Source of the DNA: Candidatus Poribacteria bacterium
Lineage (GTDB): Bacteria; Poribacteria; WGA-4E; WGA-3G
Length of the DNA: 64,000 nt
Direction: 5' to 3'
NCBI GenBank assembly: GCA_965215265.1
Contig: OZ244048.1
Span: 1,952,001-2,016,000, forward strand
The notes beneath the pieces are model-generated. The model saw only the letters and a program-made list of their open reading frames with translations. It ran no database searches and was not told the origin of the DNA. Made by a program: the position numbers and the translations under genes. Of the stretch, positions 6,285 to 25,696 are shown in pieces. The stretch's first letter is position 1; every line of letters begins with the position of its first letter.

Positions 6285-7589
6285 ATGCGACATCAAAAAC
6301 GCCTAACCGCACGAAAACGCCCCAGACGGCAACGCTGCCGGACGTGTCGTTCTGATAACGGCAAACGCATCTGTCCGGCGCTCAACGGTATGTTAATCTG
6401 TCCTGAATGCTGTCGAGCAAAACGCGCTAAGATTCCTGGCTGCGACGAGAGGTGCCGGTACTACGCTCCGCTCATTGTCGAAAGCAAGACGCATAGCCCA
6501 TCTAATTTCCCGATGCATAGGTGTCTTGTGAGTCGCTCAGTGGATACCGGCATGTTAATCGTCGTAGGCACGCGTAAACGTCCAGATGGGAACCTGAAAG
6601 CGATGTTTCTTCTGCTTGACCTCTGGAAAAAGGGCATCCGGGACTGTTTTTTTGATGCGAAGCTCTCTGAAAAACAGTTTGAGCGCGTGGCGCAAAAAAT
6701 TGGCAAAATTTACAATTTAATGGAATATGCAGATCTGGACGACACGGACGAAAAAGAGACAGCGGCAGTGCCGGTAGATATTCGTATGCCAAAAGATACG
6801 CTTGTTATTGAAGCAGATGCTGCTGTACACCTTGACAAAGGGGTCCGGACCGTTGAGCATGAAGGTGCGTCTGGTAGAAAAGCGATTGATAGCCTGAGAG
6901 GCGCGCGTGCAATACACGAAATCTATATTCCCAAAACAGGAAGATGGTACGTCTGGTTACGCGTGTTGTTTGACGGGGGCGGAAAAGATTCGTATTGGGT
7001 CGGTATGGACGACGCGGTGCCACACCCGTGGAACCAAGAAGGGGGGCCCGGTGCCATTAAAATTTATGCAGAACCTGACGACTCAAAAAAATGGGGACGC
7101 TGGCTGTGGGATTCTGGCGTAGACAATATCCATGGTGTCAGTCCGTGTTTTTTTCAGGTAAAACGGACGGGGTACTATCAACTCTGGTCGAAGGGCAGGG
7201 AGCCCGGCTCTCGCTTAGACCAGATCTGTCTGACACGTTCTCGAAATTTTAATCCGGAAACAGCGTCGGATGGAAAACCGCTGCCAATTATGCGGGCACC
7301 GCATCCTTACGAACCAATTTCCGTTCATGAATGCCAAAAACTCATCCGCCATGCCGTTGACATTGCAACCGCTGTTAAAACCGAGTTGCCTTGGGAATTT
7401 CAATACTGGGTCCGCGATATGTGGGGGGATATCTCCGAATTTCCTAAAACGGAAGGTTCTCTCTACAAGTGCCCGAAGTGTGGTGAAGAAATTCCCAAAC
7501 AAGCAGTTGAACTGATGATACAACACGCGCAATCGGATGATATTCAATTTTACATCTTATGCCGAAAATGCGGCGGCGAATTTGATTAA
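6285..7589 (+). CDS. Cys-rich zinc-finger protein with an inserted carbohydrate-binding-like beta-sandwich
   Basis: N-terminal CRTC/CPECC/CDERC, C-terminal CPKC...CRKC; central YVWLRV, DSYWV, GREPGSRLDQICLT. Confidence 0.65.
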   Translation: MRHQKRLTARKRPRRQRCRTCRSDNGKRICPALNGMLICPECCRAKRAKIPGCDERCRYYAPLIVESKTHSPSNFPMHRCLVSRSVDTGMLIVVGTRKRPDGNLKAMFLLLDLWKKGIRDCFFDAKLSEKQFERVAQKIGKIYNLMEYADLDDTDEKETAAVPVDIRMPKDTLVIEADAAVHLDKGVRTVEHEGASGRKAIDSLRGARAIHEIYIPKTGRWYVWLRVLFDGGGKDSYWVGMDDAVPHPWNQEGGPGAIKIYAEPDDSKKWGRWLWDSGVDNIHGVSPCFFQVKRTGYYQLWSKGREPGSRLDQICLTRSRNFNPETASDGKPLPIMRAPHPYEPISVHECQKLIRHAVDIATAVKTELPWEFQYWVRDMWGDISEFPKTEGSLYKCPKCGEEIPKQAVELMIQHAQSDDIQFYILCRKCGGEFD

Positions 7590-7677
7590 AGTCAGCTAAA
7601 TTTCATGTGTACAACTTGGACTGTAGAGCGCGTCAGAGCGTTGCCTTAGTTATTTTAGTAAGGTTTTGTATATCGGT

Positions 7678-9831
7678 ATGTGTCGTACCCTCCTGATTAT
7701 AAGTCTAATCCTCTTTACGCACCTCTGCATCGCCTGCATCGCCGCGCCACCGAACCCTTACCGTTTTTTTGATGTCGATGCAGTGACAGGTAAATTGGAA
7801 CCCAAGTCTCCCGAAAGTGCGGCTAAATTCTTAGAGGCACTGGATGGCTGCTGCTTTGCCGCGCCGCAGCGCAGCTTACAGCCCGATGGTGTTGAGTATG
7901 TGCTTGCACTAAAAGTGGATTTTGTTGATATGCCCGGGCGTAGAAGTGGTGCGGAATTAACACGATACCTTTTTGATACAGAAGGTGTCTCCTTGAAAAC
8001 CTACTATTGGGAGAATTCTTATGGCCAGATGGATGTTCAATCAGGTCCGCTTGGTGGTGTTATCCCAGCAGGCAATGAGTGGATACGTGCGAAAAAACCG
8101 ATGAGTTATTATGGCGAGGGTGCTGGCGTTAACGTCATCCGCAGTCAAGAATTGGTGCGTGAGGTGTGTGAAGCCGTGGATGCAAGCGTCGATTTTTCCC
8201 AGTATGACCGCGACAAGGATGGAGTCGTCGATCACGTTTTCATCATCCATTCGGGGAATGACAATGCAGCGTCTGCTGTGCCTGAGGACATCTGGTCGGT
8301 TTTAACGCCGGGTATTAATCTGGAACTTGATGGGGTACTCATTGAGACTGCTGTTCTGGTTGCTGAGGAGCCCGATTTTGAGAAACCGCATTTGGGCATC
8401 TATTTCCACGAATTTTTTCACGATTTCGGCGCGCCAGATATTTACGGACTGAATTTCACCGATGCCCGCGACCACAAGTGGGGACTGATGGGCGCGTTCG
8501 GCCCCTATCAGGGGCCTGAGGTACTTGGATTGGGCAACGGTTTAGCCCCTAGTCATATCATGGGCTATCTTAAATGGGATTTTGATGCTCGTCCTGAGAA
8601 TGGTCGTGTCGGATGGATTGAACCTGTTACGATCACACAAAATCAGAGTATCTCTATTCCGAGTTTTGAGCTTCCTCCGAAAACCGACAAACTTTTCAAA
8701 ATTGATGTCACTAAACCCGCTGCCGGGTTTGAAAAACTGTCCTTACCCGGTGCGTCTGAATTTTTCCTCATAGAAAATCGTTACAAAGCCTCAGGCGCGA
8801 CGTTTGATACCTACTTGCCAGAATCTGGTATTCTGATATGGCATATTGATGAAACGCGTGTGCGGCCCCTTGGCAGCTTTGATGCCTCGGAACAGATTTG
8901 GCTTGAAGATCCGACAGATCCGGAACACATCGGAATCTCAGATCCCGTGACGAAGTTTATAGATATTCAGAGCATTACGAACGGTGCAGCTTACTCAGCT
9001 GACGATGGCCAGACTTCTTTTACCCCTGGAAGTTTGCCTAATAGCAACGCTAACGATGGAACTGTAACCGGCATCTCAATTACTAATATCGGGCATGAGG
9101 GGTTCACTGTTCCTCTGCGGGTGTCGTTTGGGGATACATACGAGCCCAACGATACGTTCGCAAGTGCGTTTCCGCTCAGATATGGGCAGCTGTACGAATC
9201 CTTTCTGTTTGATACAAGTGATATGCGCGATATCTACCAGTTGGAAGTTATCAAAGGTGTCACGATTCGGGTGACACTCGCTGATGTTCCATTCGGACAG
9301 GAATACCGCCTATTTCTCGTTAAAGGGGTAGGGGAAATTATACAAGAAACCTATTTAGATATTCCTGATTCTGTTCGTGCGACACCTCTCACCGATACTG
9401 TTGGACTTCAACTGATTTATCAGCCTGATGTTACAGGTACATTCTACATTGTCATAGAATCCGATAGCGGCTTCAGCAGTGTTGATTCTTACCTATTGCA
9501 GGTGGAGCAGTTAGAGGCGGGGGCTTTCGCCTTGTCGGAACTTCGGATTTATCCGAATCCGCTGCGCGTCGGTGATGGCATGATGAAGTTTGAATATCGG
9601 CTCGCTGCGTCCCAAACTGCGGATACTGTCAAACTTGAGATTTTTAGTCTCGCTGGGGATATGGTTTATAGTGAGACACATCGGGATGTCTTTTCACCTG
9701 GGACGTTCGAGTGGCAGGCCGTAACGCGGCAGGGCAGTCCGATTGCAGCGGGCATCTACATTTACCGAATCTCTGCGATACAAGCGGATATAAGCGGGCA
9801 ACAGATTGGCAAGGTGAGTATTCTCAAATAA
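7678..9831 (+). CDS. secreted M6-family (immune inhibitor A-like) metalloprotease with PPC-like and FlgD/CTD-like C-terminal domains
   Basis: signal peptide, YDRDKDGVVDH, HEFFHDFGAPDIY zinc motif, EFFLIENR, GILIWHIDE, DTYEPND, YPNP...GIYIYRI. Confidence 0.85.
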   Translation: MCRTLLIISLILFTHLCIACIAAPPNPYRFFDVDAVTGKLEPKSPESAAKFLEALDGCCFAAPQRSLQPDGVEYVLALKVDFVDMPGRRSGAELTRYLFDTEGVSLKTYYWENSYGQMDVQSGPLGGVIPAGNEWIRAKKPMSYYGEGAGVNVIRSQELVREVCEAVDASVDFSQYDRDKDGVVDHVFIIHSGNDNAASAVPEDIWSVLTPGINLELDGVLIETAVLVAEEPDFEKPHLGIYFHEFFHDFGAPDIYGLNFTDARDHKWGLMGAFGPYQGPEVLGLGNGLAPSHIMGYLKWDFDARPENGRVGWIEPVTITQNQSISIPSFELPPKTDKLFKIDVTKPAAGFEKLSLPGASEFFLIENRYKASGATFDTYLPESGILIWHIDETRVRPLGSFDASEQIWLEDPTDPEHIGISDPVTKFIDIQSITNGAAYSADDGQTSFTPGSLPNSNANDGTVTGISITNIGHEGFTVPLRVSFGDTYEPNDTFASAFPLRYGQLYESFLFDTSDMRDIYQLEVIKGVTIRVTLADVPFGQEYRLFLVKGVGEIIQETYLDIPDSVRATPLTDTVGLQLIYQPDVTGTFYIVIESDSGFSSVDSYLLQVEQLEAGAFALSELRIYPNPLRVGDGMMKFEYRLAASQTADTVKLEIFSLAGDMVYSETHRDVFSPGTFEWQAVTRQGSPIAAGIYIYRISAIQADISGQQIGKVSILK

Positions 9832-9956: not shown

Positions 9957-10068
9957 AAAGGAAAGCCGTTTGGCATACGCATTAAAAGTCGGGGCGGACG
10001 GTGCGTGTTGTGCAACTTATTGTTATATCCGCCCGAAGTGAATTATAAACAAGGAGGCAATATTATCA

Positions 10069-11151
10069 ATGAAATCGTTCAATAAATTGCAACATGGTGC
10101 TACAAAGGGCGTTCTATCGACATGGCTTAGTCTTGCCGTGCTATTTGCGTTTGCGCTCGGCCTTATAGGGTGTGGTACCTCCCTCAGCAACTTAGCTCCG
10201 ATTCAACCTGTGCAGAATATAGCAGATGCGTTGATGTTACAGAGCGAAAAACCTAACCAGGAAGTAGTTGTACCTGCTATTCCTGATGAGGACCTTGCTA
10301 AACCGATTCTGGACAAGTACGGGATGCGGACCGTTGGGTTCCGCATTGGTAAAGCGCAAGATGTGAACATGCAAGCGTTAACTTATCTTCTGGCGTTTAA
10401 CGAGTACGCGCATATGGAAGAAGAGTGGGGCCAATTTCTAAGCGAGTGGGGCGAAACCAAAACTCAGATTGAAATGGGCACGGGGGATGATAAGAAGATG
10501 GTTGATGCTATTTTGGTGTCAGATCTTCCGACACTCTTTCAGGTTCAGGCGAAACAGCCTATTCTGACCAAGACCCAAGATGGTGTTACGGTTTCGATTG
10601 TTTATTGGCGGCGCCCAGATTTAGACCGGAAGTACAACCGTGGCAACGCTTTTTCGCCTTTTTATGAGACAGAGGCACTCCACCAAGGTGACAAAACGGA
10701 TGTGTTTTACGTCAAGATTACCAACAATCGGAGTGAAAACATCCTCTTTGATGTGACAAAGTGCAAGATCGTTGACCAAGGGGAAAATGAATACTACGGT
10801 ATGAATTATGATGATTTAGAGGAACGTCTCACGCTAATTCCGCGTGCGACAGGGCTCTATGTAAAAAATGGGCTTGAAAATGCGCGGCAGATCTTGATTG
10901 AGCGGCGCATGAAGATTGTTGAAAAGCAGGTTGGTGCTCGTCGTACTGGTGTACCCCCAGGCGAGAGCGCAGAGGGTTTTTTGCCTTTTACCCAGACGAA
11001 GCTGAACGCGGTCGAACTGAACATCATTCTTCCTATTGAAAAGGCACCGCCACCGGGCGGCGCGCAGCGTTACCAAATGGTAGAGTTTAAATTTCCGTTT
11101 ACACACGACAGAGGTATTCGGCTGGCACAGCCTTCCCCGAGACGTTATTAG
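10069..11151 (+). CDS. hypothetical lipoprotein
   Basis: AAGGAGG SD; hydrophobic stretch ending in LIGC lipobox. Confidence 0.75.
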   Translation: MKSFNKLQHGATKGVLSTWLSLAVLFAFALGLIGCGTSLSNLAPIQPVQNIADALMLQSEKPNQEVVVPAIPDEDLAKPILDKYGMRTVGFRIGKAQDVNMQALTYLLAFNEYAHMEEEWGQFLSEWGETKTQIEMGTGDDKKMVDAILVSDLPTLFQVQAKQPILTKTQDGVTVSIVYWRRPDLDRKYNRGNAFSPFYETEALHQGDKTDVFYVKITNNRSENILFDVTKCKIVDQGENEYYGMNYDDLEERLTLIPRATGLYVKNGLENARQILIERRMKIVEKQVGARRTGVPPGESAEGFLPFTQTKLNAVELNIILPIEKAPPPGGAQRYQMVEFKFPFTHDRGIRLAQPSPRRY

Positions 11152-11250
11152 GCTTGCGTCGTAGGAGCCGCTTCTTCCTTGTTTCGGTTGTGTACGAGAT
11201 AGCTGTACGTCTGCACAGGAGTGCTCGGCAGCGCAATTTTTAACGTTTTC

Positions 11251-11287
11251 AAATGCTCGCTGTGGTTTCCTGCAGCGAGCATTTTTG
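11251..11287 (+). terminator. intrinsic terminator
   Basis: AAATGCTCGCTG...CAGCGAGCATTT stem followed by T-run. Confidence 0.75.
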
Positions 11288-11479
11288 TGTGTTGGATATA
11301 GTAGATTTTAGAATTATCTATATATTATCCGTTCGTGTGCGACGTTTTCAGAGGCAGCGGCACCGGTAGGAGCAAGCTCCGGAGCCAGATCGTTTTGCGC
11401 ACTACGGTACCCTACCCCGGGACTGGGAGAAGGGGTTTTCTGACTTTTCTCCTATAACTCCTAATGCAGACAAGACAAC

Positions 11480-13510
11480 TCAGCCATCCACAATTTGACA
11501 GTCTGGAAGTGAGTCCAAGAACTGTTTGCCGTAACTGCCCGTTTTAATTCGCGGATCGAGGATGACGACGATTCCTTTGTCGGTTTGTGTTCGGATGAGC
11601 CTGCCAAATCCTTGCTTGAGGCGCAGTATCGCTTCGGGTAAACTGAATTCAAAAAACTCGTTGCCGCCGCGTTCTTTAATCTGTTTGACGCGGGCTTCCA
11701 TCACGGGATGCGTTGGTACCTCAAATGGCAGCCGCGTGATAATGACATTGCTGAGGGCCTCGCCACGTACATCCACGCCTTCCCAAAAAGTGGAAGTCCC
11801 AAATAAAACAGAATTAGTATCCTCCCGGAACGCTTGGAGCATAGCGGTGCGTGAAAGTTGACCGCCCTGCTTGAACGTTTCGATTCCTATGTCTTCGAGG
11901 TAAGGCATGACAGCCTCGTAAACTTCATCCATCATTTTATAACTGGTAAACAGGACGAACGCTTTTCCGTGTGTCAATTTGAGGTAGTGTTTAATCTCTC
12001 TAATGACTGCTGATGTAAATTCTGGGCGGTTGGGATGCGGCATAGAACGCGGGATGTGAATGCGTACCTGTTGTTTAAAGTTAAAGGGAGAGTGTACGAG
12101 CAGTTCTCTACAGCCGTTAATGCCAACCCGTTTTTTAAAGTAATCAAAGTTGCGATTGGTAGAGAGTGTCGCGCTTGTCATTACGACGCTGTTTTTGGTG
12201 GTGAATAGGTTATCCTGTAACATCTGGTTGACGTTAGTAGGTGTCGCATTTAAGAGGATGCGTGGAGTGCGGCCGCGGGCTATGATTTCCGCCCAATAGA
12301 CATAATCCGGATCGGTTTGCCGGATTATCATGTCCAACTCGTCACGGAGCCGTTCACAGAGGCGGTAGTGTGCAGCTATTTCTTGTTCGTCATCATCGGT
12401 TTGTGCCTCGTCTCGGAGCTGTTTCAGGGCGTTTTCAATTTCGGCGAGGGGGCTATCTAATACATTTCTGATAAAATTGGATTTCTGGATACGTTTTGTA
12501 AGCGGAGAGTGCGCAGCTGCTCCTTGAACAGTGAGGGCGGCTGGATTAGCCGTTGATTTGCCAATTTCATCAATGATTTCCGCAAAGAGGCTGTTCGCTT
12601 GTTCGCGTGCTCCTGCCACCTGAACCTTCAGTTCTGAGATATCAAACCGCGTCGCCAGTCCCGCTTCGCTCCGTTCGTTATAGAGGGAATCGAGGAGCCA
12701 TTTAACTTGTGTATTGCTGAATTCCACACTCGTATGGTGAGTGGCTGTTGCCTCCAAATGGTGTGCTTCATCAATAATCAGGTAATCATAGTCAGGCAGA
12801 ATCCCTGCCGACGCGTTGTCTTTTCGGAGTGCTAAATCGCTGAAAAGTAGGTGGTGATTGACAATAAGCAGGTTTGCTTCTTGCATCTCTTGCCGTGCTT
12901 TAAAGTAGAAACAGGTGTCGTAGGTAGGACATCTGCGCCCGAGGCAGTTGTCCCGATCTGAGGCGACTTTATCCCATACGTTCGGGAGTGGTTGTCTCGG
13001 CAGGTCAGCTCTGCTTCCGTCCTCTGTCAGGCTGACCCATTCGACGATATCGGCTACCTCATTTACCTCTTCCTGGGTGTCAAAGAGTCCGCGTGGATAG
13101 TCAAGCAGTGTCTTGAGTCTTCTTCGGGATAAGTAATTCCTGCGCCCTTTTGCCAGCACTGCGATGAAATCGCGCGGAAGAGTACGCTGCAGAAACGGGA
13201 TGTCCTTGGTAACCAGTTGTTCTTGTAAGCTGATGGTGTTTGTTGAGATGACAACCGTTTGCCCTGCTTTGCACGCCAGTGAGATTGCAGGTATCAGATA
13301 CGCAAAACTTTTACCGATGCCGGTCCCAGCTTCGACAATAAGATGTTCGGAGGCGAGAAATGCACGTGCTACCTCATTTGCCATGTGCAGCTGCTCATGG
13401 CGAAATTCATAGCCGTCAAGTTGTTGCGAAATAAGCCCACCGGGGCTAAAGATATCTCTTAAAGTGAAGGATTTTGATGTTTGTACCATTTTTTTTCGGT
13501 GGCGCGGCAT
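11480..13510 (-). CDS. dinG: DinG/YoaA-family ATP-dependent DNA helicase
   Basis: EAGTGIGKS, KGRRNY, DEAH, SATL, FWEGVDVRG, QGFGRLIR. Confidence 0.9.
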   Translation of the reverse strand: MPRHRKKMVQTSKSFTLRDIFSPGGLISQQLDGYEFRHEQLHMANEVARAFLASEHLIVEAGTGIGKSFAYLIPAISLACKAGQTVVISTNTISLQEQLVTKDIPFLQRTLPRDFIAVLAKGRRNYLSRRRLKTLLDYPRGLFDTQEEVNEVADIVEWVSLTEDGSRADLPRQPLPNVWDKVASDRDNCLGRRCPTYDTCFYFKARQEMQEANLLIVNHHLLFSDLALRKDNASAGILPDYDYLIIDEAHHLEATATHHTSVEFSNTQVKWLLDSLYNERSEAGLATRFDISELKVQVAGAREQANSLFAEIIDEIGKSTANPAALTVQGAAAHSPLTKRIQKSNFIRNVLDSPLAEIENALKQLRDEAQTDDDEQEIAAHYRLCERLRDELDMIIRQTDPDYVYWAEIIARGRTPRILLNATPTNVNQMLQDNLFTTKNSVVMTSATLSTNRNFDYFKKRVGINGCRELLVHSPFNFKQQVRIHIPRSMPHPNRPEFTSAVIREIKHYLKLTHGKAFVLFTSYKMMDEVYEAVMPYLEDIGIETFKQGGQLSRTAMLQAFREDTNSVLFGTSTFWEGVDVRGEALSNVIITRLPFEVPTHPVMEARVKQIKERGGNEFFEFSLPEAILRLKQGFGRLIRTQTDKGIVVILDPRIKTGSYGKQFLDSLPDCQIVDG

Positions 13511-17777: not shown

Positions 17778-18893
17778 TTACTGCTTAAGGTATCCCCATA
17801 TAGTGGTGAGTTTCCCTTCTGCTTCGACGGCCCGAAAACCGGTATCAAAGACCAGAACGTCTGGAATATCGCCGAGTTCTCTATTATATCCTCCGAAGAC
17901 ATAAATTTGTCCGTTGACCGTCGCTGCACCATACGGACTCAGAAGTGTTGGCAGTTCTGGAATATTCCGCCACGCCTCTTTGTGTGGACTATACACAGCC
18001 ACAGTCGCTAAAAAACGACCGTGAGCGAAACCGCCTATCAGATAGATGTCGTCCTTAACAACAATCGTCTCGAATCCCTCTCTGACATCTAACATATCCT
18101 TATTCCGCCGCCATCGACGGGTTCTCGGGGCATATTCCTCAATGCCCCTGAGAAGAGGACCCGCACCAACTGGTGGAAATCCACGTCCACCGATGACATA
18201 AAGACAAGTGCTGACAACTCCTACACCTCCAGGGTCGCGCCGGGTCGGCATTTTTGTACCCTTACTCCACCTATTCGTATCAGGATCATAGACATCCACC
18301 CGATCTATCCGCTGTTCATGTCCCTCACCGAAGCCTGTTGTCCCGCCGATAAGATAGACTTTGCCATCGAACACACCGAGATGAAAGTTGATACGAGAAA
18401 TCGGCATGTCCTTTTTCTGAGTCCATGTGTCGGTTTGAGGATTGTATGCCTCTGTGTGAAGAGGCAATTTCCAATTCTTAATTAATCTGTCTTTTGAACT
18501 ATACCCGCCAAAAACATAGATAGTGCCGTTGACAACAACAGCTCTCGCACCCTGGCGTGGCGTTGGCATATCTGTCAGTCGTCGCCATGTGTTGTTTTGT
18601 GGATCATACACCTCGACGGTTGAAATTCCATAGGGGCCGTCTGGATTTTTAAAGAGAGTGCCCCCGATGAGATAAATCTTATCCTCTACCACTGCAGTTG
18701 CGAAAGCCGTTCTCTTCGTCGAAATCTCAGTGATAACTTTCCATTCCTCACCGGCAAAGGATTCCATTCGCATAAGGAGAAAAATAAAAAAAACGAGAGC
18801 CATAACGGGAGCCGTTTTAGAATTGAATAGGCGTGGCATAGGGCATACTGACATGTGTTGTTCGCAGAAAAAAAGGGAAATTGGTAAATCCAT
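17778..18893 (-). CDS. secreted Kelch-repeat beta-propeller protein (copy C)
   Basis: six IYxxGG...W Kelch repeats, signal peptide, tail AVEAEGKLTTIWGYLKQ. Confidence 0.9.
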   Translation of the reverse strand: MDLPISLFFCEQHMSVCPMPRLFNSKTAPVMALVFFIFLLMRMESFAGEEWKVITEISTKRTAFATAVVEDKIYLIGGTLFKNPDGPYGISTVEVYDPQNNTWRRLTDMPTPRQGARAVVVNGTIYVFGGYSSKDRLIKNWKLPLHTEAYNPQTDTWTQKKDMPISRINFHLGVFDGKVYLIGGTTGFGEGHEQRIDRVDVYDPDTNRWSKGTKMPTRRDPGGVGVVSTCLYVIGGRGFPPVGAGPLLRGIEEYAPRTRRWRRNKDMLDVREGFETIVVKDDIYLIGGFAHGRFLATVAVYSPHKEAWRNIPELPTLLSPYGAATVNGQIYVFGGYNRELGDIPDVLVFDTGFRAVEAEGKLTTIWGYLKQ

Positions 18894-19214
18894 GTGCTCT
18901 CCTTTAGAGTTTTTCTAATGAGAAAAAAGCCTCGCCATGAACGTGACTTTTGTAGCAGTTATACGATGTGTAACGACCTTTTCGTAAAACTCAGACATCT
19001 AAAAGGCTTGTTGCCACCTAAAGCCACTCGGATATATCCGAAATTCGGCAGCGAACCGTGAGAGGTTATAGAAGCGAGAACCTATACAAAAACGACTCTA
19101 CGTAAATGGATAAACTCTCGCTTATCTTATGCGGAAGCCATTCGATCTATAAACGGCTTACTCTTCTAACAGGGTCCTGAAGTACACCAGTACACCCAAT
19201 GATGAGTGCTGACC
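18658..19214. repeat. 557-bp direct repeat, copy 1 (offset 5030 bp)
   Basis: identical by eye to 23688-24244; spans peptide 3' end, spacer and Kelch 5' end. Confidence 0.9.
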
Positions 19215-19438
19215 TGCTCAGCACAACAAGTCTGGGCGGGCACGCTACAAGTCGCGAAGCGTCCGCATTGGACCTGATCGCATGCTGCTGCATCGGGTGT
19301 GACCATCAGTGATGCGAGGATTGCACCTGTTGCGACAGTGCCAGCGACTAACGCATTCTTATGAGCGACATGCCCATCTTCTTTGACGAAGAAGTCGCTG
19401 ATGCACTGCTTCGTCAGTTTTGCTATGTGTCTCTGCAT
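19166..19438 (-). CDS. 90-aa Cys-rich precursor-like peptide (copy 2)
   Basis: AAGGAG SD; paralog at 24196-24468 with many synonymous differences; leader, hydrophobic segment, AxA site, 7-Cys core. Confidence 0.85.
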   Translation of the reverse strand: MQRHIAKLTKQCISDFFVKEDGHVAHKNALVAGTVATGAILASLMVTPDAAACDQVQCGRFATCSVPAQTCCAEQVSTHHWVYWCTSGPC

Positions 19439-19695
19439 GAGATTTTATCTCCTTGAGTTTATCGTAGAAAGGGTTTTGGTAAAATAATGATGTGATATCA
19501 GCAGGATACCCTCTGGATCGTGCTGCATCATCTTTCAACAATCAGAAGGGTAGCAACTCGGGCAACTTCTCTTTCTCAGACGTGTCTCCTCATTGAGAAC
19601 CAACTCAATGCTACCCGAGGAGACGCTCACACGTTGCCCAAAACATCAACGCCATTCCTTTTGACAAAAGGAATGCGTCAACACTCGCCGAGCGT

Positions 19696-20559
19696 TCAGT
19701 GTCCTTTGGCTTTGACGATCATCGGGGTGCCCGTCTTCGCTCCATTTTTACCCACCAGATGATGTGCATTCCCCGAGGCATCTAAGAAGGTCGCCGTGCC
19801 AGCAGGCTCATCAAAATGCCATAACGCCACTGTCTTTGCGTCATTCTTGAACTGGCCGTCTGGCATAAAACCCTTTTTCTCAACATCATAACGTGCAACC
19901 CTCGAGATGCGGACCTCATCAATATATCCCGTGAAGGAATCCCAAAACACTTTGGATGGCGGACGACCAGGCACCTCAATTATTTTTCCAAACCCTCCAA
20001 GCATGAAGTCCTTTGGACGCAAAGCACGAGGATCAAGATCATGTCCGAGGGGGTGATCTTGTTGTATTGTCTTTACGAAATCATTGACAATCATTGTTGT
20101 CTGAGGTCCATTAGACTGATAAACGATATGGTGCCATTGGTTCGGCTCCAGCGGAATCGGGAAAGGGATTCTCCAACCGAGCATTCCCTCAATATAGGCA
20201 CTCATTAGCAAGATAAAGTCTCCCTTCGGAGGCTCTATATTATGCCCATTAGCCAGATTATTTAGTAGCGGTTGATATTCATCGTTCATGATAGTCAGAC
20301 GCACCTGTTGATGGAGTATCGTCAATAACGTGTCCTTGTTGTCGGGCGGTGTGGTGGGATATATCCAGGCTTCAACGGTGAATTCGTCTGTCCCTTCCGG
20401 TAAAAGCAGCCCGAAGGTTTCAAAATCTAAAACGGCGTAGTCATCAACCCCATCGAGGGCTAAGTAGTTTCCGCCTGCGGGTGAAGGGGGCGGGAGTGCT
20501 TTGGCACTCAGCGGAAGGAATATAAGCAAGAGACATGCGAGGCGTTGCCGGTATCTCAT
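19696..20559 (-). CDS. secreted LamG/concanavalin-like domain protein (copy 2)
   Basis: ALDGVDDY, FTVEAWIYP, QWHHI, FTGYIDEVRIS, TVALWHFDE; AGGAG SD before ATG 20559. Confidence 0.9.
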   Translation of the reverse strand: MRYRQRLACLLLIFLPLSAKALPPPSPAGGNYLALDGVDDYAVLDFETFGLLLPEGTDEFTVEAWIYPTTPPDNKDTLLTILHQQVRLTIMNDEYQPLLNNLANGHNIEPPKGDFILLMSAYIEGMLGWRIPFPIPLEPNQWHHIVYQSNGPQTTMIVNDFVKTIQQDHPLGHDLDPRALRPKDFMLGGFGKIIEVPGRPPSKVFWDSFTGYIDEVRISRVARYDVEKKGFMPDGQFKNDAKTVALWHFDEPAGTATFLDASGNAHHLVGKNGAKTGTPMIVKAKGH

Positions 20560-20714
20560 TTTTTCTCTCCTTTTCGTAGATAAGTCTGTGAGTTTCATTG
20601 TAAATCTCAGTTTTCATTGCCGGATCAGCAACAGTTTCTATTCTCTCTTAGAGACCCCTTTTTTGTCAAAAAACGGGCAGAATCTGAAAAAAGTTGAAAA
20701 AAAATAGCGCACAT

Positions 20715-20999
20715 TTAAACGTCTAAAATTGTGCAATTCCAGAGAAATTCAATCGTGGCATAATCTGTCACGTCTCGCTGAAGATGCGGATGGGTCTCAC
20801 GCCATAACTTCGCCGTGCTTTTCAAAAGTTGTTTCAACTGATGTAGATAGTCCCCCAAAGATGTCGCCTGAATCTGAGCCGCGAGGTGTTTTATCTCTCT
20901 AATATGCTGTAACCGTTTGGTTTCACGCCATCGCTGATAAGCGAACGGACCTACAACAACAACCGTCAGAATCAGCGTCAGCAAGATATGTTTTTTCAC
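20715..20999 (-). CDS. small membrane-anchored protein, possibly a truncated gene
   Basis: AAGGAG SD before GTG 20999; KKH plus hydrophobic helix. Confidence 0.55.
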   Translation of the reverse strand: MKKHILLTLILTVVVVGPFAYQRWRETKRLQHIREIKHLAAQIQATSLGDYLHQLKQLLKSTAKLWRETHPHLQRDVTDYATIEFLWNCTILDV

Positions 21000-21068
21000 A
21001 ACACTCCTTTCTCCCCCATGGGAGTTGTAAACGATTGTTAACGCGAAAGGGATTTTACGATATTCCAA

Positions 21069-22169
21069 TTATGGTTTTCTTTTGAGTTTTCCCCAGCGTG
21101 TTGGCAGTTTACCTGTTGCCTCAACGGCCTGAAAACCAGTATCAAAGACGAGAACGTCTGGCAAAAATTCCAATCCTTCTCCAGCCCCGCCGAAAACATA
21201 AATCTTGCCGTTGACCGTCACTGCACCAAAAGGGCGTAGGGGCGTGGGCATCGATGGAATATCGCGCCATGTCTCTGTCCGTGGATGATACACATCCACT
21301 GTCGCTAAATACTCACGAGGTATTTGTTGCTGAGGGAAACCTCCAATCAGATAAATCTCATCTCTAACAACCGCTGTCGAGAATGAAAATCTGAGGGCTA
21401 ACATCTCCTTTTTCTTTTCCCATTGATGACTTATTGGGTCATATGCCTCAATGACCGTCAGGGCATGCCGACCCGCGCCTGCGGGTGGCCATCCGCCGAT
21501 GACATAAAGACGGTTGTTGACGACAGTCACATCTCCTGGGTCGCGGCGAGTCGGCATGTTCGGTGCTTTTCCCCACATATCCGTCGCTGGATTATAGACA
21601 TCAACCCGTGCCATCGCTACTTCATGTTCCGGACCGACACCCGTTGAACCGCCGACGAGATAGACCCTTCCCGCAACCACACCCAGATCAAAGCTGATAC
21701 GAGAAACCGGCATATCTTTTTTCTTGATCCATCTATCCGTCTTCGGATTGTATGCCTCTACGTGAACCGTAGTTTTCATATTCCAAATTTTGTTATCTTT
21801 GGCACTATACCCGCCAAAGACATAGATAATCCCGTCGACTACCGCAGCTCTCGCACCATGGCGGGGTGTTGGCATGTCTGCGCGTCGCCGCCACGTATTG
21901 GTTTGTGTATCATACTCCTCAACGGTTGAAAGTCCAAAGGGTCCGGGAGCTATTGGAGGACGTGCCTTCAGGTCTTCAAAGAGGCTGCCACCGATGAGAT
22001 AAACTTTATTATCCACAATGGCTGTGGCGAAACCCTCTTTCTCCGTCGGGAGTTGAGTGACGAGTTCCCAATCCGCTCCGGCAAAAGAGGCGATTGACAT
22101 CCATAAAAGAGTGAAAACAACGCCGCCAATAATGATACCTTTTTTGGAATTAAACACGCTTAACATCAA
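21069..22169 (-). CDS. secreted Kelch-repeat protein (copy B)
   Basis: Kelch repeats, AGGAGG SD with TTG start, tail AVEATGKLPTRWGKLKRKP. Confidence 0.9.
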   Translation of the reverse strand: MMLSVFNSKKGIIIGGVVFTLLWMSIASFAGADWELVTQLPTEKEGFATAIVDNKVYLIGGSLFEDLKARPPIAPGPFGLSTVEEYDTQTNTWRRRADMPTPRHGARAAVVDGIIYVFGGYSAKDNKIWNMKTTVHVEAYNPKTDRWIKKKDMPVSRISFDLGVVAGRVYLVGGSTGVGPEHEVAMARVDVYNPATDMWGKAPNMPTRRDPGDVTVVNNRLYVIGGWPPAGAGRHALTVIEAYDPISHQWEKKKEMLALRFSFSTAVVRDEIYLIGGFPQQQIPREYLATVDVYHPRTETWRDIPSMPTPLRPFGAVTVNGKIYVFGGAGEGLEFLPDVLVFDTGFQAVEATGKLPTRWGKLKRKP

Positions 22170-22324
22170 TTATTCCTCCTTGTTTAGTTGTTATTAAGGC
22201 CCTATTCTTAGCTTGCTATAGCTATTGGCAGGCAGTTAGTTTCTTTTATCTGCGACATCGCTTGCATCAACACAGACTTTTTGAAGCCTCACAAACTTAC
22301 CGAAAGTCGAGAACCGCCTGCGAA

Positions 22325-22740
22325 TCATTGTGCTTTGACTGTCAGTGAGGTATCAGTCTTCGCGCCATTTTTACCCGCCAGATGATAGGCACTACCCGAT
22401 GTGTCTGAGAATTCCTTTGCTCCCTCCGGTTCATCAAAATGCCACAACGCGAGGGTCTTCGCGTCATTCTTGAACTGGCCGTGCGGCGTGAAACCATCTT
22501 TCTCGACATCGTAACGAGGAATCGTTGAGATGCGGACCTCATCAATGTATCCTGCAAAAGCACCCCAAAAGTGGTTGTGACTGCTGGAACCAATCTTCTC
22601 TCCAAAGCCGCCGAGCGTAAAATCCTTTGGGCGCTCGATGCTTGAGAGATCGTCTGCAAGCATCGTTCCTTGCGGTAAGATGTGTGCGTAATCGTTAACG
22701 ATTGTTGTTGTCTGATGCCCCTTCGCTTGAAAAACGATGG
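22325..22740 (-). pseudogene. 5'-deleted LamG gene
   Basis: closely matches the 3' half of LamG 24854-25696; similarity stops at about 22740, next to the Kelch downstream sequence. Confidence 0.85.
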
Positions 22741-22792
22741 AATACTAGTTGTAAACGATTGTTAACGCGAAAAGGATTTTACGACATTCTAA

Positions 22793-23923
22793 TTATGGTT
22801 TTCTTTTGAGTTTTCCCCAGCGTGTTGGCAGTTTGCCGGTTGCTTCGACGGCGCGAAAACCGGTATCATATACCAGAACGTCTGGAAAAAACTCGAAACC
22901 TTCTTTCGCCCCTCCGAAAACATAAATCTTTCCGTTGACCATCGCTGCACCAGAAGGTGAAAGGGGCATCGGCAATGCTGGAATATCGCTCCATGCTTCT
23001 TTCTGTGGACTATACACAGCCACAGTCGCTAAAAAACGCCCGTGAGCCAAACCGCCAATCAGATAGATATCCTCCTTAACAACAACCGTCGAGAAAGCCC
23101 GTCTGATGTCTAACATTCCATTTTTCTGCCGCCAATGACGGCGCTCCGGGTCATATTCTTCAATAACCGTCAGCAACGGATCCCAACCGATTGGGGGGCC
23201 AACCGGTGGCCATCCAGATCCGCCGATGGCATAAATACGATTATTCACAACCGCTACATGGAGATACTCGCGCGCTGTTGGCATTTTTGGGGGACCCTTC
23301 GCCCATGTATCCGTGGCAGGATTATAGACATCCACCCGATCCATCCGTCTTTTATCGTCTATACGGAAACCTTCACTTCCACCGAGGAGATAGACTTTTC
23401 CAGCGACCGCACCCAGACCAAAGTAGACACGAGATATCGGCATCTCCTTTTTCCGGGTCCATATCCCTGTTGCTGGGTTGTATGCCTCTACGTGAACTGG
23501 ATATTCCCACTTTCCATCTTTCATACGGACTCCCCCGAAAACATAGATGATCCCGTTAACAACCGAGGCTTGAGCCGCCTCACGTGGCGTTGGCATATCT
23601 GTGATTCTCCGCCACGTGTGGTTCTGCGTGTCGAACACCTCAACTGTGGAAAGTCCAACGGGGCCCTTGTCAAAGTTTTCAAAGCTTGTGCCCCCGATGA
23701 GATAAATCTTATCCTCTACCACTGCAGTTGCGAAAGCCGTTCTCTTCGTCGAAATCTCAGTGATAACTTTCCATTCCTCACCGGCAAAGGATTCCATTCG
23801 CATAAGGAGAAAAATAAAAAAAACGAGAGCCATAACGGGAGCCGTTTTAGAATTGAATAGGCGTGGCATAGGGCATACTGACATGTGTTGTTCGCAGAAA
23901 AAAAGGGAAATTGGTAAATCCAT
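22793..23923 (-). CDS. secreted Kelch-repeat protein (copy A)
   Basis: Kelch repeats; N-terminus identical to copy C, C-terminal tail identical to copy B. Confidence 0.9.
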   Translation of the reverse strand: MDLPISLFFCEQHMSVCPMPRLFNSKTAPVMALVFFIFLLMRMESFAGEEWKVITEISTKRTAFATAVVEDKIYLIGGTSFENFDKGPVGLSTVEVFDTQNHTWRRITDMPTPREAAQASVVNGIIYVFGGVRMKDGKWEYPVHVEAYNPATGIWTRKKEMPISRVYFGLGAVAGKVYLLGGSEGFRIDDKRRMDRVDVYNPATDTWAKGPPKMPTAREYLHVAVVNNRIYAIGGSGWPPVGPPIGWDPLLTVIEEYDPERRHWRQKNGMLDIRRAFSTVVVKEDIYLIGGLAHGRFLATVAVYSPQKEAWSDIPALPMPLSPSGAAMVNGKIYVFGGAKEGFEFFPDVLVYDTGFRAVEATGKLPTRWGKLKRKP

Positions 23924-24244
23924 GTGCTCTCCTTTAGAGTTTTTCTAATGAGAAAAAAGCCTCGCCATGAACGTGACTTTTGTAGCAGTTATACGATGTG
24001 TAACGACCTTTTCGTAAAACTCAGACATCTAAAAGGCTTGTTGCCACCTAAAGCCACTCGGATATATCCGAAATTCGGCAGCGAACCGTGAGAGGTTATA
24101 GAAGCGAGAACCTATACAAAAACGACTCTACGTAAATGGATAAACTCTCGCTTATCTTATGCGGAAGCCATTCGATCTATAAACGGCTTACTCTTCTAAC
24201 AGGGTCCTGAAGTACACCAGTACACCCAATGATGAGTGCTGACC
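23688..24244. repeat. 557-bp direct repeat, copy 2
   Basis: identical by eye to 18658-19214. Confidence 0.9.
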
Positions 24245-24468
24245 CGCTCAGCACAACAAGTATCTCCCCACGAACACTGATTGCTTAAGTCAGGACAAGG
24301 TGTCCGTGGACACGCGTCTGCATCGGGTGTGATCATCAGAGACGCAAGGATTGCGCCTGTTGCGACAGCCCCAGCGACTAAGGCGTTCTTATGCGCAACA
24401 TGCCCATCTTCTTTGACAAAGAAATCGCTGAGACGCTGTTTCGTCAGTTGTGCTACGTGAGTTTGCAT
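24196..24468 (-). CDS. 90-aa Cys-rich precursor-like peptide (copy 1)
   Basis: AAGGAG SD; same leader and Cys frame as copy 2. Confidence 0.85.
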   Translation of the reverse strand: MQTHVAQLTKQRLSDFFVKEDGHVAHKNALVAGAVATGAILASLMITPDADACPRTPCPDLSNQCSWGDTCCAERVSTHHWVYWCTSGPC

Positions 24469-24853
24469 GAGATTTTATCTCCTTCATTTTGTAGTAGAAA
24501 CGGTAATGTTTTAACCAGAGATGCACAAAACATCTCAAATGTAGCAAACAACACCGCTTCTTAGAATTAGAGGGTTTTCGGTAAAATAATGATGAGATAG
24601 AGTGCCCTCATAACACTCTTTTCCCAGACTCGTCCGACATTACCCCGACAGTCCCACAGGCTGGTAAACCGTTGGTGCCGTGGGTAGCTTTCGACGAGGC
24701 GACAATTCTGTTTGTGTTGCTGTTAGGTGTGCGTCATCAATAGTTCGTCCGCTTTCAGCAACTGTGTCGTTTCGATACGAGATTTGAACCTTGGCGCGGC
24801 TATGGTTCTTGATATCGTATCGAAGCCATCTAATAGAACTTTTCTTAGAGGTA

Positions 24854-25696
24854 TCATTGTGTTTTGACTGCAAGCGGGATGCCGATCTTTGCACCATTTT
24901 TACCCGTCAGATGGTGAGCATTCCCCGATGCATCCGAGAATGTCGGCGTTCCGCCTGGCTCATCAAAATGCCACAACGCCACTGTCTTTGCGTCATTCTT
25001 GAACTTGCTGTGCGGCGTGAAACCAGTTTTATCGACATCGTAACGAGGAATCGTTGAGATGCGGACCTCATCGATATATCCCGCAAAAGCACCCCAAAAG
25101 TGATCGTGACTCCTGGAACCGATTTTCTCTCCAAAACCCCCAAGCGTAAAATCCTTTGGACGCTCTAAGTTTGAGAGATCGTCCGCTAGCGGTGTATTTT
25201 GAGGTAAGATGTATGCGTAATCGTTAACGATGGTTGTTGTCTGATGCCCATTCGACTGAAAAGCGATGTGATGCCATTGATTCGGCGAAAGTGTTCTCGC
25301 GTGGTGCGGGGTCTCAGCAACCCCTCCCCTCACCATAAAATGTGCTTGAATTCTGAGGAATAAATCTCCTTTCTGCCAATCGAGGGTATCCCTTGCTCCC
25401 TCCCATCCGGCGTGAACATCGTTGACAACATCCATCCGCACCTGCTGGCTGAGAATCATTGCGTGTATCTCATCAGCAGGCGGTGTGGTGGGATATATCC
25501 ACGCTTCAACGGTAAATTCGTCTGTCCCTTCCGGTAACAGCAGCCCGAACGTTTCAAAATCTAAAACGGCATAGTCATCAACTCCGTCAAGGGCTAAATA
25601 GTTTCCGCCTGCGGGTGACGGGGGTGGGAGTGCTTTGGCACTCAGCGGCATGAAAACAAGCAAAAAGAGACAGGTAAGGATGTGTCGGTGTCTCAT
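24854..25696 (-). CDS. secreted LamG/concanavalin-like domain protein (copy 1)
   Basis: signal peptide; ALDGVDDY, FTVEAWIYP, QWHHIAF, YIDEVRIS, ALWHFDE. Confidence 0.9.
   Translation of the reverse strand: MRHRHILTCLFLLVFMPLSAKALPPPSPAGGNYLALDGVDDYAVLDFETFGLLLPEGTDEFTVEAWIYPTTPPADEIHAMILSQQVRMDVVNDVHAGWEGARDTLDWQKGDLFLRIQAHFMVRGGVAETPHHARTLSPNQWHHIAFQSNGHQTTTIVNDYAYILPQNTPLADDLSNLERPKDFTLGGFGEKIGSRSHDHFWGAFAGYIDEVRISTIPRYDVDKTGFTPHSKFKNDAKTVALWHFDEPGGTPTFSDASGNAHHLTGKNGAKIGIPLAVKTQ

Follow-up and report, generated by a model that had tools for sequence, protein, structure and literature searches.

Results

Organization of the array

The window analysed here is a stretch of 64,000 nucleotides (64 kb) from a Candidatus Poribacteria bacterium (GenBank assembly GCA_965215265.1, contig OZ244048.1, positions 1,952,001 to 2,016,000). 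The subject of this study is an array on its minus strand, between positions 17778 and 25696, in which genes for secreted LamG proteins, small cysteine-rich precursor peptides and secreted Kelch propellers occur in several copies. The minus-strand open reading frames (ORFs) of this interval were assigned to families with Pfam and NCBIfam. An earlier note on this DNA had proposed an order of nine ORFs, and all nine were recovered at their places in the ORF listing. Together with two conserved non-coding elements, they are as follows (aa, amino acids).

24854-25696, minus strand: LamG1, a 280-aa secreted LamG/ConA-like lectin-fold protein (Laminin_G_3, E=3e-9) with a signal-like N terminus
24196-24468, minus strand: pep1, a 90-aa precursor with a 22-aa hydrophilic leader, a hydrophobic segment at aa 30-46, an AxA site and a 38-aa core with 7 Cys
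24090-24198, minus strand: conserved non-coding element 1, abutting the pep1 stop codon, with two hairpins, one within a 55-nt near-palindrome
22793-23923, minus strand: KelchA, a secreted six-bladed Kelch propeller that pairs with pep1 (Kelch_1 six times, E=2e-57)
22325-22745, minus strand: truncated LamG pseudogene, of which ORF 22325-22663 encodes only the last 112 residues, the 5' end being gone
21069-22169, minus strand: KelchB, a secreted Kelch propeller with no precursor gene ahead (Kelch_1 six times, E=4e-58)
20715-21068, minus strand: 117-aa transmembrane (TM) ORF, a deletion scar (see below) that fuses the N terminus of a haem/thioredoxin protein in frame to the C terminus of an ABM-like protein
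19696-20598, minus strand: LamG2, a secreted LamG protein (Laminin_G_3, E=2e-8) of the orthogroup found after the ABM-like gene at the operon end
19166-19438, minus strand: pep2, a 90-aa precursor that shares its leader with pep1 and diverges from it in the core at aa 54-70
19060-19168, minus strand: conserved non-coding element 2, abutting the pep2 stop codon and identical to 24090-24198
17778-18893, minus strand: KelchC, a secreted Kelch propeller that pairs with pep2 (Kelch_1 six times, E=9e-61)

Both full LamG proteins exceed the Pfam cut-off for Laminin_G_3 (37.6 and 35.1 bits versus 27.6), and each of the three Kelch proteins has six Kelch_1 stretches (E=1e-57 to 1e-61). The claim that all intact members bear export signals agrees with the N-terminal hydrophobic stretch present in every one of them and missing from the truncated LamG. 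Comparison with orthologues indicates that three genes probably start further downstream, KelchA at Met19 (23869), KelchC at Met19 (18839) and LamG2 at Met14 (20559). The truncated LamG is 79% identical to the C terminus of LamG1, its nucleotide similarity to the LamG genes of other loci extends to 22739-22745, and only 155 bp separate it from KelchB. The most conserved part of LamG is the C-terminal ~65 residues (24854-25050 and 19696-19890), outside the Pfam-matched aa 54-215; it is kept in the truncated copy. Mature LamG1, LamG2, KelchA and KelchB contain no Cys, so that intermolecular disulfides to the 7-Cys peptides pep1 and pep2 are unlikely. A 241-aa ORF at 23135-23860 on the plus strand, antisense to KelchA, is most likely spurious, and comparable antisense ORFs overlap other Kelch genes.

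Divergence of the duplicated genes

The duplication is borne out by families of direct repeats. Pairwise identity is 73% for pep1 and pep2, 63% for LamG1 and LamG2, 71% for KelchA and KelchC and 60% for KelchA and KelchB. Synonymous divergence (dS) is 0.82 between the LamG genes, 0.58 between the peptides and 0.49-0.78 among the Kelch pairs, and the copies are on this estimate old. The ratio of non-synonymous to synonymous divergence (dN/dS) among the paralogues is 0.3-0.4 overall and 0.08 in the leader. Each family had been described as a constant scaffold with one varying part, and this description stands: LamG1 and LamG2 vary in their middle, with a proportion of non-synonymous differences (pN) of 0.48-0.50 at aa 78-133 versus 0-0.08 at aa 18-77; pep1 and pep2 differ in the first half of the core, at aa 54-70, and are the same at aa 71-90 save for one residue; and in 33 Kelch sequences the variable columns follow the GG doublets, as had been noted, and also the P..R motif, which gives two variable loops per blade. 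Against this background, a 300-nt tract (18646-18945 versus 23676-23975) spanning the 5' ends of KelchC and KelchA and the DNA upstream is 99% identical; within it the first ~60 codons and ~50 nt upstream are identical, with a proportion of synonymous differences (pS) of 0, and pS in the remainder of the two genes is 0.3-0.7. Such a tract amid otherwise diverged genes points, therefore, to recent gene conversion between old paralogues.

The precursor peptide family

A word-seeded search for relatives of the peptide (E<=0.01) returned 204 clusters at 90% identity, and all three entries that bear names are hypothetical proteins of Candidatus Poribacteria. In ESM Atlas the peptide matched two Poribacteria clusters whose products are nameless (0.93 and 0.89) and a third cluster at 0.76, below the 0.9 line. 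Alignments of 53 and of 33 members have almost invariant first ~50 residues and a variable core, which is the conserved-leader, variable-core pattern of precursors of peptides that are ribosomally synthesized and then post-translationally modified (RiPPs). The precursor opens with a 22-residue hydrophilic part that ends in an invariant Gly, followed by a short polar stretch with Lys at +5 and then by a Gly/Ala-rich hydrophobic segment that ends in Pro-x-x-A-x-A; the core that follows has 30-50 residues and 4-7 Cys, and its fixed positions amount to little more than four Cys columns. Across 406 pairs from 29 genes, residues 1-29 have a dN/dS of 0.049 and residues 30-47 one of 0.15, and as the leader value is this low at a pS of 0.56 (dS ~1), its conservation acts on the protein level. 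In each of the six upstream regions that were aligned, the ATG has a strong ribosome-binding site ahead of it.

The peptides belong to no Pfam or NCBIfam family. DUF4342 gave weak matches to 3 of 17 members (best E=0.004), and Toxin_23 matched 1 of the 17 (E=0.0026). Among solved structures, the Cys-rich core had only non-significant matches, to EPC3 (E=0.035) and to the hybrid atracotoxin 2h1z (E=0.069).

Behind the stop codon of LamG-linked precursors, ~105 nt are more conserved than the coding core, with 30 invariant columns in 11 sequences, namely the two window copies and nine further loci (L001-L005, L007, L008, L011 and L016; the locus set is described below). No compensatory pair changes occur in the aligned copies, and none of the Rfam families is matched; placed between precursor and Kelch, the element may act as an operator, as an attenuator or in stability. 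In other precursor subclasses, the stop codon is followed by conserved hairpins of a different kind.

Linkage of peptide, Kelch and LamG genes in related genomes

When species-representative genomes were scanned once with the peptide profile, 25 loci (L001-L025) came out, all 25 from Candidatus Poribacteria, and onto these we mapped the window proteins and the operon proteins of L004. Of 33 precursors, 23 are followed on the same strand by a Kelch gene at a distance of 93-392 bp, 5 directly by a gene for a haem/thioredoxin protein and 2 by a LamG or LamG fragment; 2 lie at a contig end, among them that of L003, whose following Kelch is cut by that end, and 1 is a truncated pseudogene with nothing following. 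Two 5'-cut precursors (L022 and L023) stand outside the 33, and both are then followed by a Kelch. Viewed from the other side, 23 of the 35 full-length Kelch genes have a precursor directly upstream. A full LamG lies within 800 bp upstream of 10 of the 33 precursors, in 4 of the 10 cases on the opposite strand. The triad of peptide, Kelch and LamG therefore recurs in related genomes, and the alternative named in the earlier note, a one-off segmental duplication with peptide homologues elsewhere unlinked to Kelch or LamG, is not borne out. The peptide/Kelch gene set has so far been seen only in Poribacteria.

LamG1 is 74-81% identical to the LamG proteins encoded upstream of the peptide in eight loci. 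The LamG gene is flipped in L001, L004, L005 and L025 relative to L003, L008, L011, L016 and the window, with its position unchanged. The idea that it is an invertible element was rejected: 4 of 10 copies are flipped, yet no flanking inverted repeats were found. In L004 a DDE transposase gene (7458-8735) adjoins the LamG gene. L002 contains a lone precursor–Kelch pair (10001-11699) in an unrelated gene neighbourhood, between a 449-aa and a 136-aa ORF, and the members of this pair are 91% identical to pep2 and 70% identical to KelchC, respectively.

An operon core absent from the window

The 117-aa ORF, which had been counted as a small TM member of the array, is not a gene family of its own. 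In tblastn searches with L004 proteins, aa 10-75 of the haem/thioredoxin protein (CytDsb) match 21002-20805, and aa 67-101 of a 102-aa protein (s102) match 20825-20721. In 12 loci the two matching ends lie ~6.6-6.9 kb apart with four genes between them; the ORF is therefore an in-frame deletion scar of two operon genes, and its junction can be seen in the comparison with orthologues. The operon core was described from L004 (eleven ORFs; 5.3-20.1 kb scanned) and comprises five genes.

Gene i (haem/thioredoxin, CytDsb): 672 aa, with a TM anchor and Cytochrome_C554 and DsbA/GILT-type thioredoxin domains; directly follows Kelch
Gene ii (GTa): 581 aa, a glycosyltransferase of family 4 (GT4; Glycos_transf_1, E=4e-19)
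Gene iii (GTb): 556 aa, a paralogue of GTa, 25% identical to it
Gene iv (A24): 377 aa, an aspartic, prepilin-type peptidase (Peptidase_A24, E=1.6e-7, and Arc_PepC, E=3.9e-6)
Gene v (s102): 102 aa, ABM-like (Pfam E=0.002; ABM/TIGR03792-like clusters in ESM Atlas, 0.95)

The product of gene i matches the NCBIfam model 'UshA-like (seleno)protein PCGU' below the cut-off (224 versus 275 bits), and 13 of 13 orthologues share a PCGC motif together with four CxxCH sites. The catalytic Asp residues D23 and D83 (GD motif) of the A24 peptidase are invariant in 18 of 18 sequences, distant paralogues included. All five core genes are full length in 12 of the 25 loci and at least one of them in 17; in the DNA examined per locus, GTa and GTb are both full length in 13 of 25. 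A peptide–Kelch pair lies inside the operon, between GTb and A24, in L007, L009, L010, L012 and L014, and a Kelch alone lies there in L018.

The 64-kb window holds no other copy of any operon core gene. The remark that no modifying enzyme or transporter is encoded in the array is thus true of the window, but only since a core of ~6.6 kb has been deleted from it; the relatives keep the enzymes. The peptides had been called disulfide-type; because the peptide–Kelch pairs of relatives adjoin or lie inside an operon for two GT4 proteins with predicted leader-binding domains (see below), an A24 peptidase and a haem/thioredoxin protein, the peptides are probably not that simple but leader-guided, modified products. 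Fragments of the haem/thioredoxin, GTb or A24 genes are scattered in the Kelch arrays of other genomes (L006:8426-8587, L019:9319-9480, L014:7673-9855, L015:11536-11769 and L022:12703-14802), so that deletion scars of this kind are recurrent. In a tree of 18 LamG proteins, LamG1 groups with LamGs that precede a precursor gene (L003/L004), and LamG2 with LamGs that come after the last operon gene (s102) in L008, L011 and L016. In this gene-cluster family, LamG lectin-fold proteins are encoded on the flanks.

Predicted leader-binding domains on the paired glycosyltransferases

As a single sequence, GTa residues 26-100 match residues 6-80 of CteB (5wgg) with E=4.8e-6, and a profile of 31 N termini (GTa, GTb and paralogues) matches CteB residues 4-95 with E=1.1e-15, the next match being at 0.0036. 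Pfam and NCBIfam give the same lead more weakly (SCIFF-maturase N terminus and PqqD). The N-terminal part of CteB is presented in the portion of PMC6231123 drawn on here as a typical RiPP recognition element (RRE), to which the CteA leader binds by extending its beta-sheet. On these matches, the N-terminal ~90 residues of both GT4-type proteins are predicted RRE domains. The pairing of an RRE enzyme with a precursor in one gene cluster, as in RiPP systems, is found in the relatives but not in the window.

GTa has the E-x7-E motif that is characteristic of GT4; in GTb and its paralogues the first Glu is missing and two residues are deleted at this place. Since the motif is kept in GTa and absent from GTb, GTa looks like the active enzyme and GTb like a degenerate partner. 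Pfam gives no glycosyltransferase family 2 (GT2) match for GTa, and the score of GTa against the Pfam family 'GT4 in conflict systems' is just below the cut-off (24.1 versus 26 bits), the family being listed for most of its orthologues. That family is described in PMC8195603. In the excerpts of the RRE survey/RRE-Finder paper used here (PMC12710340), PF00535 is the only glycosyltransferase family mentioned as fused to an RRE.

Sister modules with the same leader logic

A motif scan found three further families of small proteins that share the leader logic of the precursors. F16, E20, G22 and V24 are invariant across all four peptide families, which also share a basic residue at +5 and the AxA end; families 2 and 3 have a Cys-rich tail after that end. 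Family 2, whose core is conserved, is encoded between paralogous GTa'/GTb'/A24' genes and a gene for a 986-aa fusion of an extracytoplasmic function (ECF) sigma factor, a TM segment and a BNR/sortilin-type propeller (L017:5458-8901, L004:24-3359, L011:1291-4654, L016:3273-6635 and L025:4467-7914). Family 3 adjoins GTa' in L017, and in L014 a third A24 paralogue is encoded near family 4. That each enzyme module has a peptide family of its own is the strongest argument that the peptides are the substrates of the modules. A leader profile run over 1.84 billion representative proteins returned 122 proteins at E<=1e-3 and 64 at E<=1e-10; this wider leader family amounts to 122 clusters at 50% identity, and among 10 distant matches that were looked up, two clusters are named, both from Poribacteria.

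Kelch and LamG proteins and their co-variation with the peptides

Among natural proteins of solved structure, IVNS1ABP (3e-39) and KEAP1 (2e-35) come closest to the Kelch proteins; still better scores are reached by designed Kelch proteins. By sequence, the predicted Kelch domains are closest to peptide-binding propellers of the KLHL/KEAP1 type. An identity as N-acetylneuraminate epimerase (NanM/YjhT mutarotase) was rejected on the NCBIfam scores (70 versus 416 and 65 versus 256 bits); the Pfam NANM score (77-88) is over its cut-off of 45, yet far under the Kelch_1 score. A LamG search returned 849 relatives at E<=1e-5, and two among the best 120 of the 849 are named, both Poribacteria; no solved relative was found by sequence.

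Over 22 precursor–Kelch pairs, the distance between peptide cores correlates with the distance between the adjoining Kelch proteins (r=0.65, equalled in 0 of 2000 permutations), the leader distance less so (r=0.32, 11 of 2000). With the scaffold distance removed, the variable Kelch columns retain a partial r of 0.41 (0 of 2000), and the converse gives 0.17 (121 of 2000). Such co-variation of core and Kelch loops fits a ligand and its binder, as co-adaptation predicts.

Discussion

We propose that the array belongs to a new RiPP-like system whose peptides are exported, disulfide-rich and probably glycosylated and have one cognate Kelch protein each, and that the window holds a satellite array from which the enzymes have been lost. 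We regard this reading, drawn from gene content and sequence comparison, as probable, if not strongly so. The RRE domains of the GT4 proteins would grip the precursor leader in the cytoplasm, and the active partner GTa would glycosylate the core. The hydrophobic segment would carry the peptide into or across the membrane, and the leader could be removed at Gly22 by the A24 peptidase, at AxA by signal peptidase, or by both enzymes. Outside the cytoplasm the haem/thioredoxin protein would make the disulfides, and the mature, knot-like peptide would be bound by its own Kelch on the diversifying loop face. Such a pair of ligand and binding protein would more likely serve recognition or signalling than killing.

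In the window, the enzyme core is deleted, one LamG is truncated and one precursor is lost, and the other genes are intact; they make up two whole triads and a third Kelch that stands behind the truncated LamG. The genome probably holds further family members, a precursor (P0054) and a LamG (P0371); the core of P0054 resembles those of the precursors in L008, L011 and L016 whose next gene is the haem/thioredoxin gene. Because the window genes are full length and constrained, and P0054 and P0371 probably belong to the same genome, we infer that a complete cluster at another place in the genome serves this satellite array in trans.

A more far-reaching picture, which we think possible but doubtful, is that Poribacteria possess a private repertoire of glycosylated knot-like peptides built by a hitherto undescribed RiPP route with an RRE-GT4 pair, a prepilin-type leader peptidase and haem-driven disulfide formation, each peptide being read by its own secreted Kelch or by a propeller fused to an ECF sigma factor. 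The repertoire would form a diversifying recognition code for kin or strain sensing inside the sponge, and the Kelch proteins of these symbionts would be receptors for their own peptides, not mimics of host proteins.

Several findings weigh against the proposed RiPP-like system. GT4 enzymes mostly make envelope glycans, and the operon could act on another substrate. The hydrophobic segment with its AxA end is, as predicted, an ordinary Sec-type signal that would suffice for export. In the part of PMC4471445 used here, a class III signal is defined as a hydrophilic leader of 6-26 aa that ends in Gly and is followed by ~21 hydrophobic residues with Glu5; the leader length and the terminal Gly22 of the precursors match this definition, but the Glu5 and the immediate hydrophobic tract do not. 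The tract begins only 7 residues past Gly22, Lys/Arg takes the place of Glu at +5, and +1 to +6 are polar; no Flp_Fap or other pilin model matched any of 17 peptides at E up to 10. The gene linkage is incomplete, 12 of 35 Kelch genes having no precursor directly upstream and 5 of 33 precursors having no Kelch. No full-length core gene lies within 10 kb in 8 of the 25 loci, and no LamG or enzyme gene was seen within 10 kb of the lone pair of L002, so that a peptide–Kelch pair can persist away from the enzymes. As to the co-variation, nearest neighbours agree in only 8 of the 22 pairs, co-inheritance of adjoining genes gives much of the signal, and variable columns hold more signal anyway, which weakens the partial correlation.

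The best-placed alternative, which we nevertheless judge unlikely, is a toxin/immunity system in which the peptides are glycocin-like bacteriocins directed at neighbouring bacteria, the periplasmic Kelch proteins are the cognate immunity proteins and lone Kelch proteins are orphan immunity. It would account for the tight one-to-one adjacency, for the several diverged pairs per genome, for arrays with extra Kelch genes and for those Kelch genes (12 of 35) that have no precursor directly upstream. The knottin-like resemblance of the cores, although weak and non-significant (2h1z and the single Toxin_23 match), and the near-threshold score of GTa for 'GT4 in conflict systems' tend the same way. 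However, neither Pfam, NCBIfam nor PADLOC gives a toxin, immunity or defence family, a 37-kDa propeller would be unusual as an immunity protein for a 4-kDa peptide, and 5 of 33 precursors lack a Kelch altogether. Moreover, the sister module joins its propeller to an ECF sigma factor, an arrangement that speaks for sensing more than for protection.

A role in host interaction is improbable. Here the Kelch and LamG proteins would be 'eukaryote-like' effectors, secreted to act on proteins or matrix of the sponge, and the small ORF would be unrelated or accessory. Most Poribacteria are known as sponge symbionts, the family is found in Poribacteria only, all members have export signals, and the Kelch proteins resemble animal KLHL/KEAP1 more than bacterial mutarotases. 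Yet the constant element of the loci is neither Kelch nor LamG but the precursor, which adjoins the genes for RRE glycosyltransferases, the A24 peptidase and thiol-redox proteins; its leader is very strongly constrained, Kelch divergence tracks peptide divergence, and no secretion system for delivery into host cells was found in the 25 loci among the families mapped.

We give equally little credence to the peptides being pilin-like surface proteins, with class III signals that the A24 peptidase cuts at Gly22, a helix that serves in anchoring or assembly and pilin-type glycosylation by GT4, so that no RiPP logic applies. The 22-residue hydrophilic leader within the 6-26 aa range, its invariant Gly ahead of a hydrophobic tract, as in the definition cited above from PMC4471445, and the A24 peptidase alongside with both catalytic Asp residues do recall type IV pilins and the Flp/TadV system. 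Differences lie in the polar HVAHKN stretch that follows the Gly, the lack of Glu5, the 7-residue distance to the tract, and an AxA site that is conserved after the hydrophobic segment in all four families, pointing to signal-peptidase release, with a soluble Cys-rich domain behind it. No pilin family matches, and the glycosyltransferases bear RRE domains. Phe at -7, Glu at -3 and Gly at -1, all three invariant, presumably resemble the leaders of Flp prepilins. No assembly ATPase or platform protein was present among the eleven L004 ORFs scanned or turned up in the annotated stretches of L004 and L017, no search for them across the loci having been made; the two are named as conserved parts of pili in the section of PMC4471445 used here.

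There is also little chance that the window copy is a decaying remnant, left without present function after deletion of the operon. Decay could explain the scar ORF in place of the enzyme core, the truncated LamG and the missing precursor, and like scars of CytDsb, GTb or A24 occur in the Kelch arrays of L006, L014, L015, L019 and L022. However, the two precursors, LamG1, LamG2 and all three Kelch genes have the full length of their orthologues, dN/dS among the paralogues remains low, above all in the leader, the ribosome-binding site and the post-stop element are conserved, and the pair of pep2 and KelchC has an orthologous stand-alone pair that is kept in another species (L002). Finally, the idea that the propeller, the small Cys-rich protein, the haem protein and thioredoxin make up a quinoprotein of the methylamine-dehydrogenase type was rejected, as the small-subunit core is not conserved.

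The proposed RiPP-like system shares features with several known ones and differs from each. CteB/CteA, a SCIFF/sactipeptide system (5WGG), offers a homologous RRE, a conserved leader and a Cys-rich core; the catalytic domain of CteB, however, is radical SAM/SPASM, whereas the Poribacteria enzyme is a GT4 and its precursor also includes a segment for export. In the annotated stretches of L004 and L017, no radical SAM gene was seen.

Glycocins of the sublancin type are disulfide-rich ribosomal peptides whose genes cluster with those for a dedicated glycosyltransferase and dedicated thiol-disulfide oxidoreductases. They use GT2 transferases, which are not known to carry an RRE, and an ABC transporter with a C39 peptidase that cuts at a double-Gly site. 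In contrast, the Poribacteria set combines a GT4 carrying an RRE (not a GT2 of the SunS type), a Sec-like segment, an A24 peptidase and a haem-linked thioredoxin-fold protein; no GG stands at the leader end, and no ABC transporter is found among the L004 operon genes. The odd number of Cys (7 in both pep1 and pep2) would free one Cys for S-glycosylation, as in sublancin.

GtfA and GtfB, which glycosylate serine-rich repeat adhesins ahead of export, are likewise an active GT4 beside a degenerate GT4-like paralogue, and their substrates likewise have an unusually long conserved signal N-region and a Gly-rich hydrophobic core. The Poribacteria system differs in having no accessory Sec genes, in its 90-aa Cys-rich substrates instead of giant adhesins and in the RRE on both glycosyltransferases. 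With KEAP1 and KLHL proteins the Kelch proteins share the six-bladed fold (natural PDB matches, E=1e-35 to 1e-39) and variable loops after GG and P..R, which in KEAP1 form the peptide-binding face; unlike them, they have no BTB/BACK domains, carry a signal peptide for secretion and have a candidate ligand encoded by the neighbouring gene. The conotoxin and knottin superfamilies also join a near-invariant pre-region to a variable mature part on a fixed Cys framework. The present system is bacterial, however, the 22-29-aa cytoplasmic part of its pre-region is tied to RRE enzymes, and the sequence likeness is non-significant.

That the peptide system is undescribed, as had been suspected, agrees with our searches: no protein-family library names the peptides, and no paper on the system was found. 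Our literature search turned up no paper that combines Poribacteria and Kelch, nothing on this system under Poribacteria RiPPs or eukaryote-like/laminin proteins, and no paper that combines an RRE-GT4 fusion, a candidate A24 leader peptidase and tetrahaem/thioredoxin oxidative folding. Among the results for Poribacteria RiPPs is work on srp azol(in)e RiPPs. If the proposal is true, it adds a new class of ribosomal peptide natural products in an uncultured and abundant phylum of sponge symbionts, and it would give the bacterial 'eukaryote-like' Kelch and LamG proteins a testable role as partners of self-made peptides. The 204 clusters at 90% identity, and the 122 at 50% in the wider leader family, would constitute a natural library of disulfide-rich scaffolds. 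For annotation, the lesson is that 'small TM ORF' genes can be deletion scars and that peptide–Kelch arrays spread away from their enzymes.

Surroundings of the array

Promoter and terminator scans gave sites no more numerous than in shuffled sequence. No Rfam family was matched between 16500 and 26500 at the gathering threshold, and PADLOC returned no family among the nine proteins scanned, none of its anti-phage defence models being matched. The flanks of the array have no synteny with any of the 25 peptide loci and are of a housekeeping nature, with genes for a DinG-type helicase, HtrA, a Rieske protein, a DUF255 thioredoxin protein and NuoN. On the plus strand, 7666-9831 encodes a 721-aa protein with an immune-inhibitor-A (M6) peptidase domain and a FlgD Ig-like domain, which is unrelated to the array.

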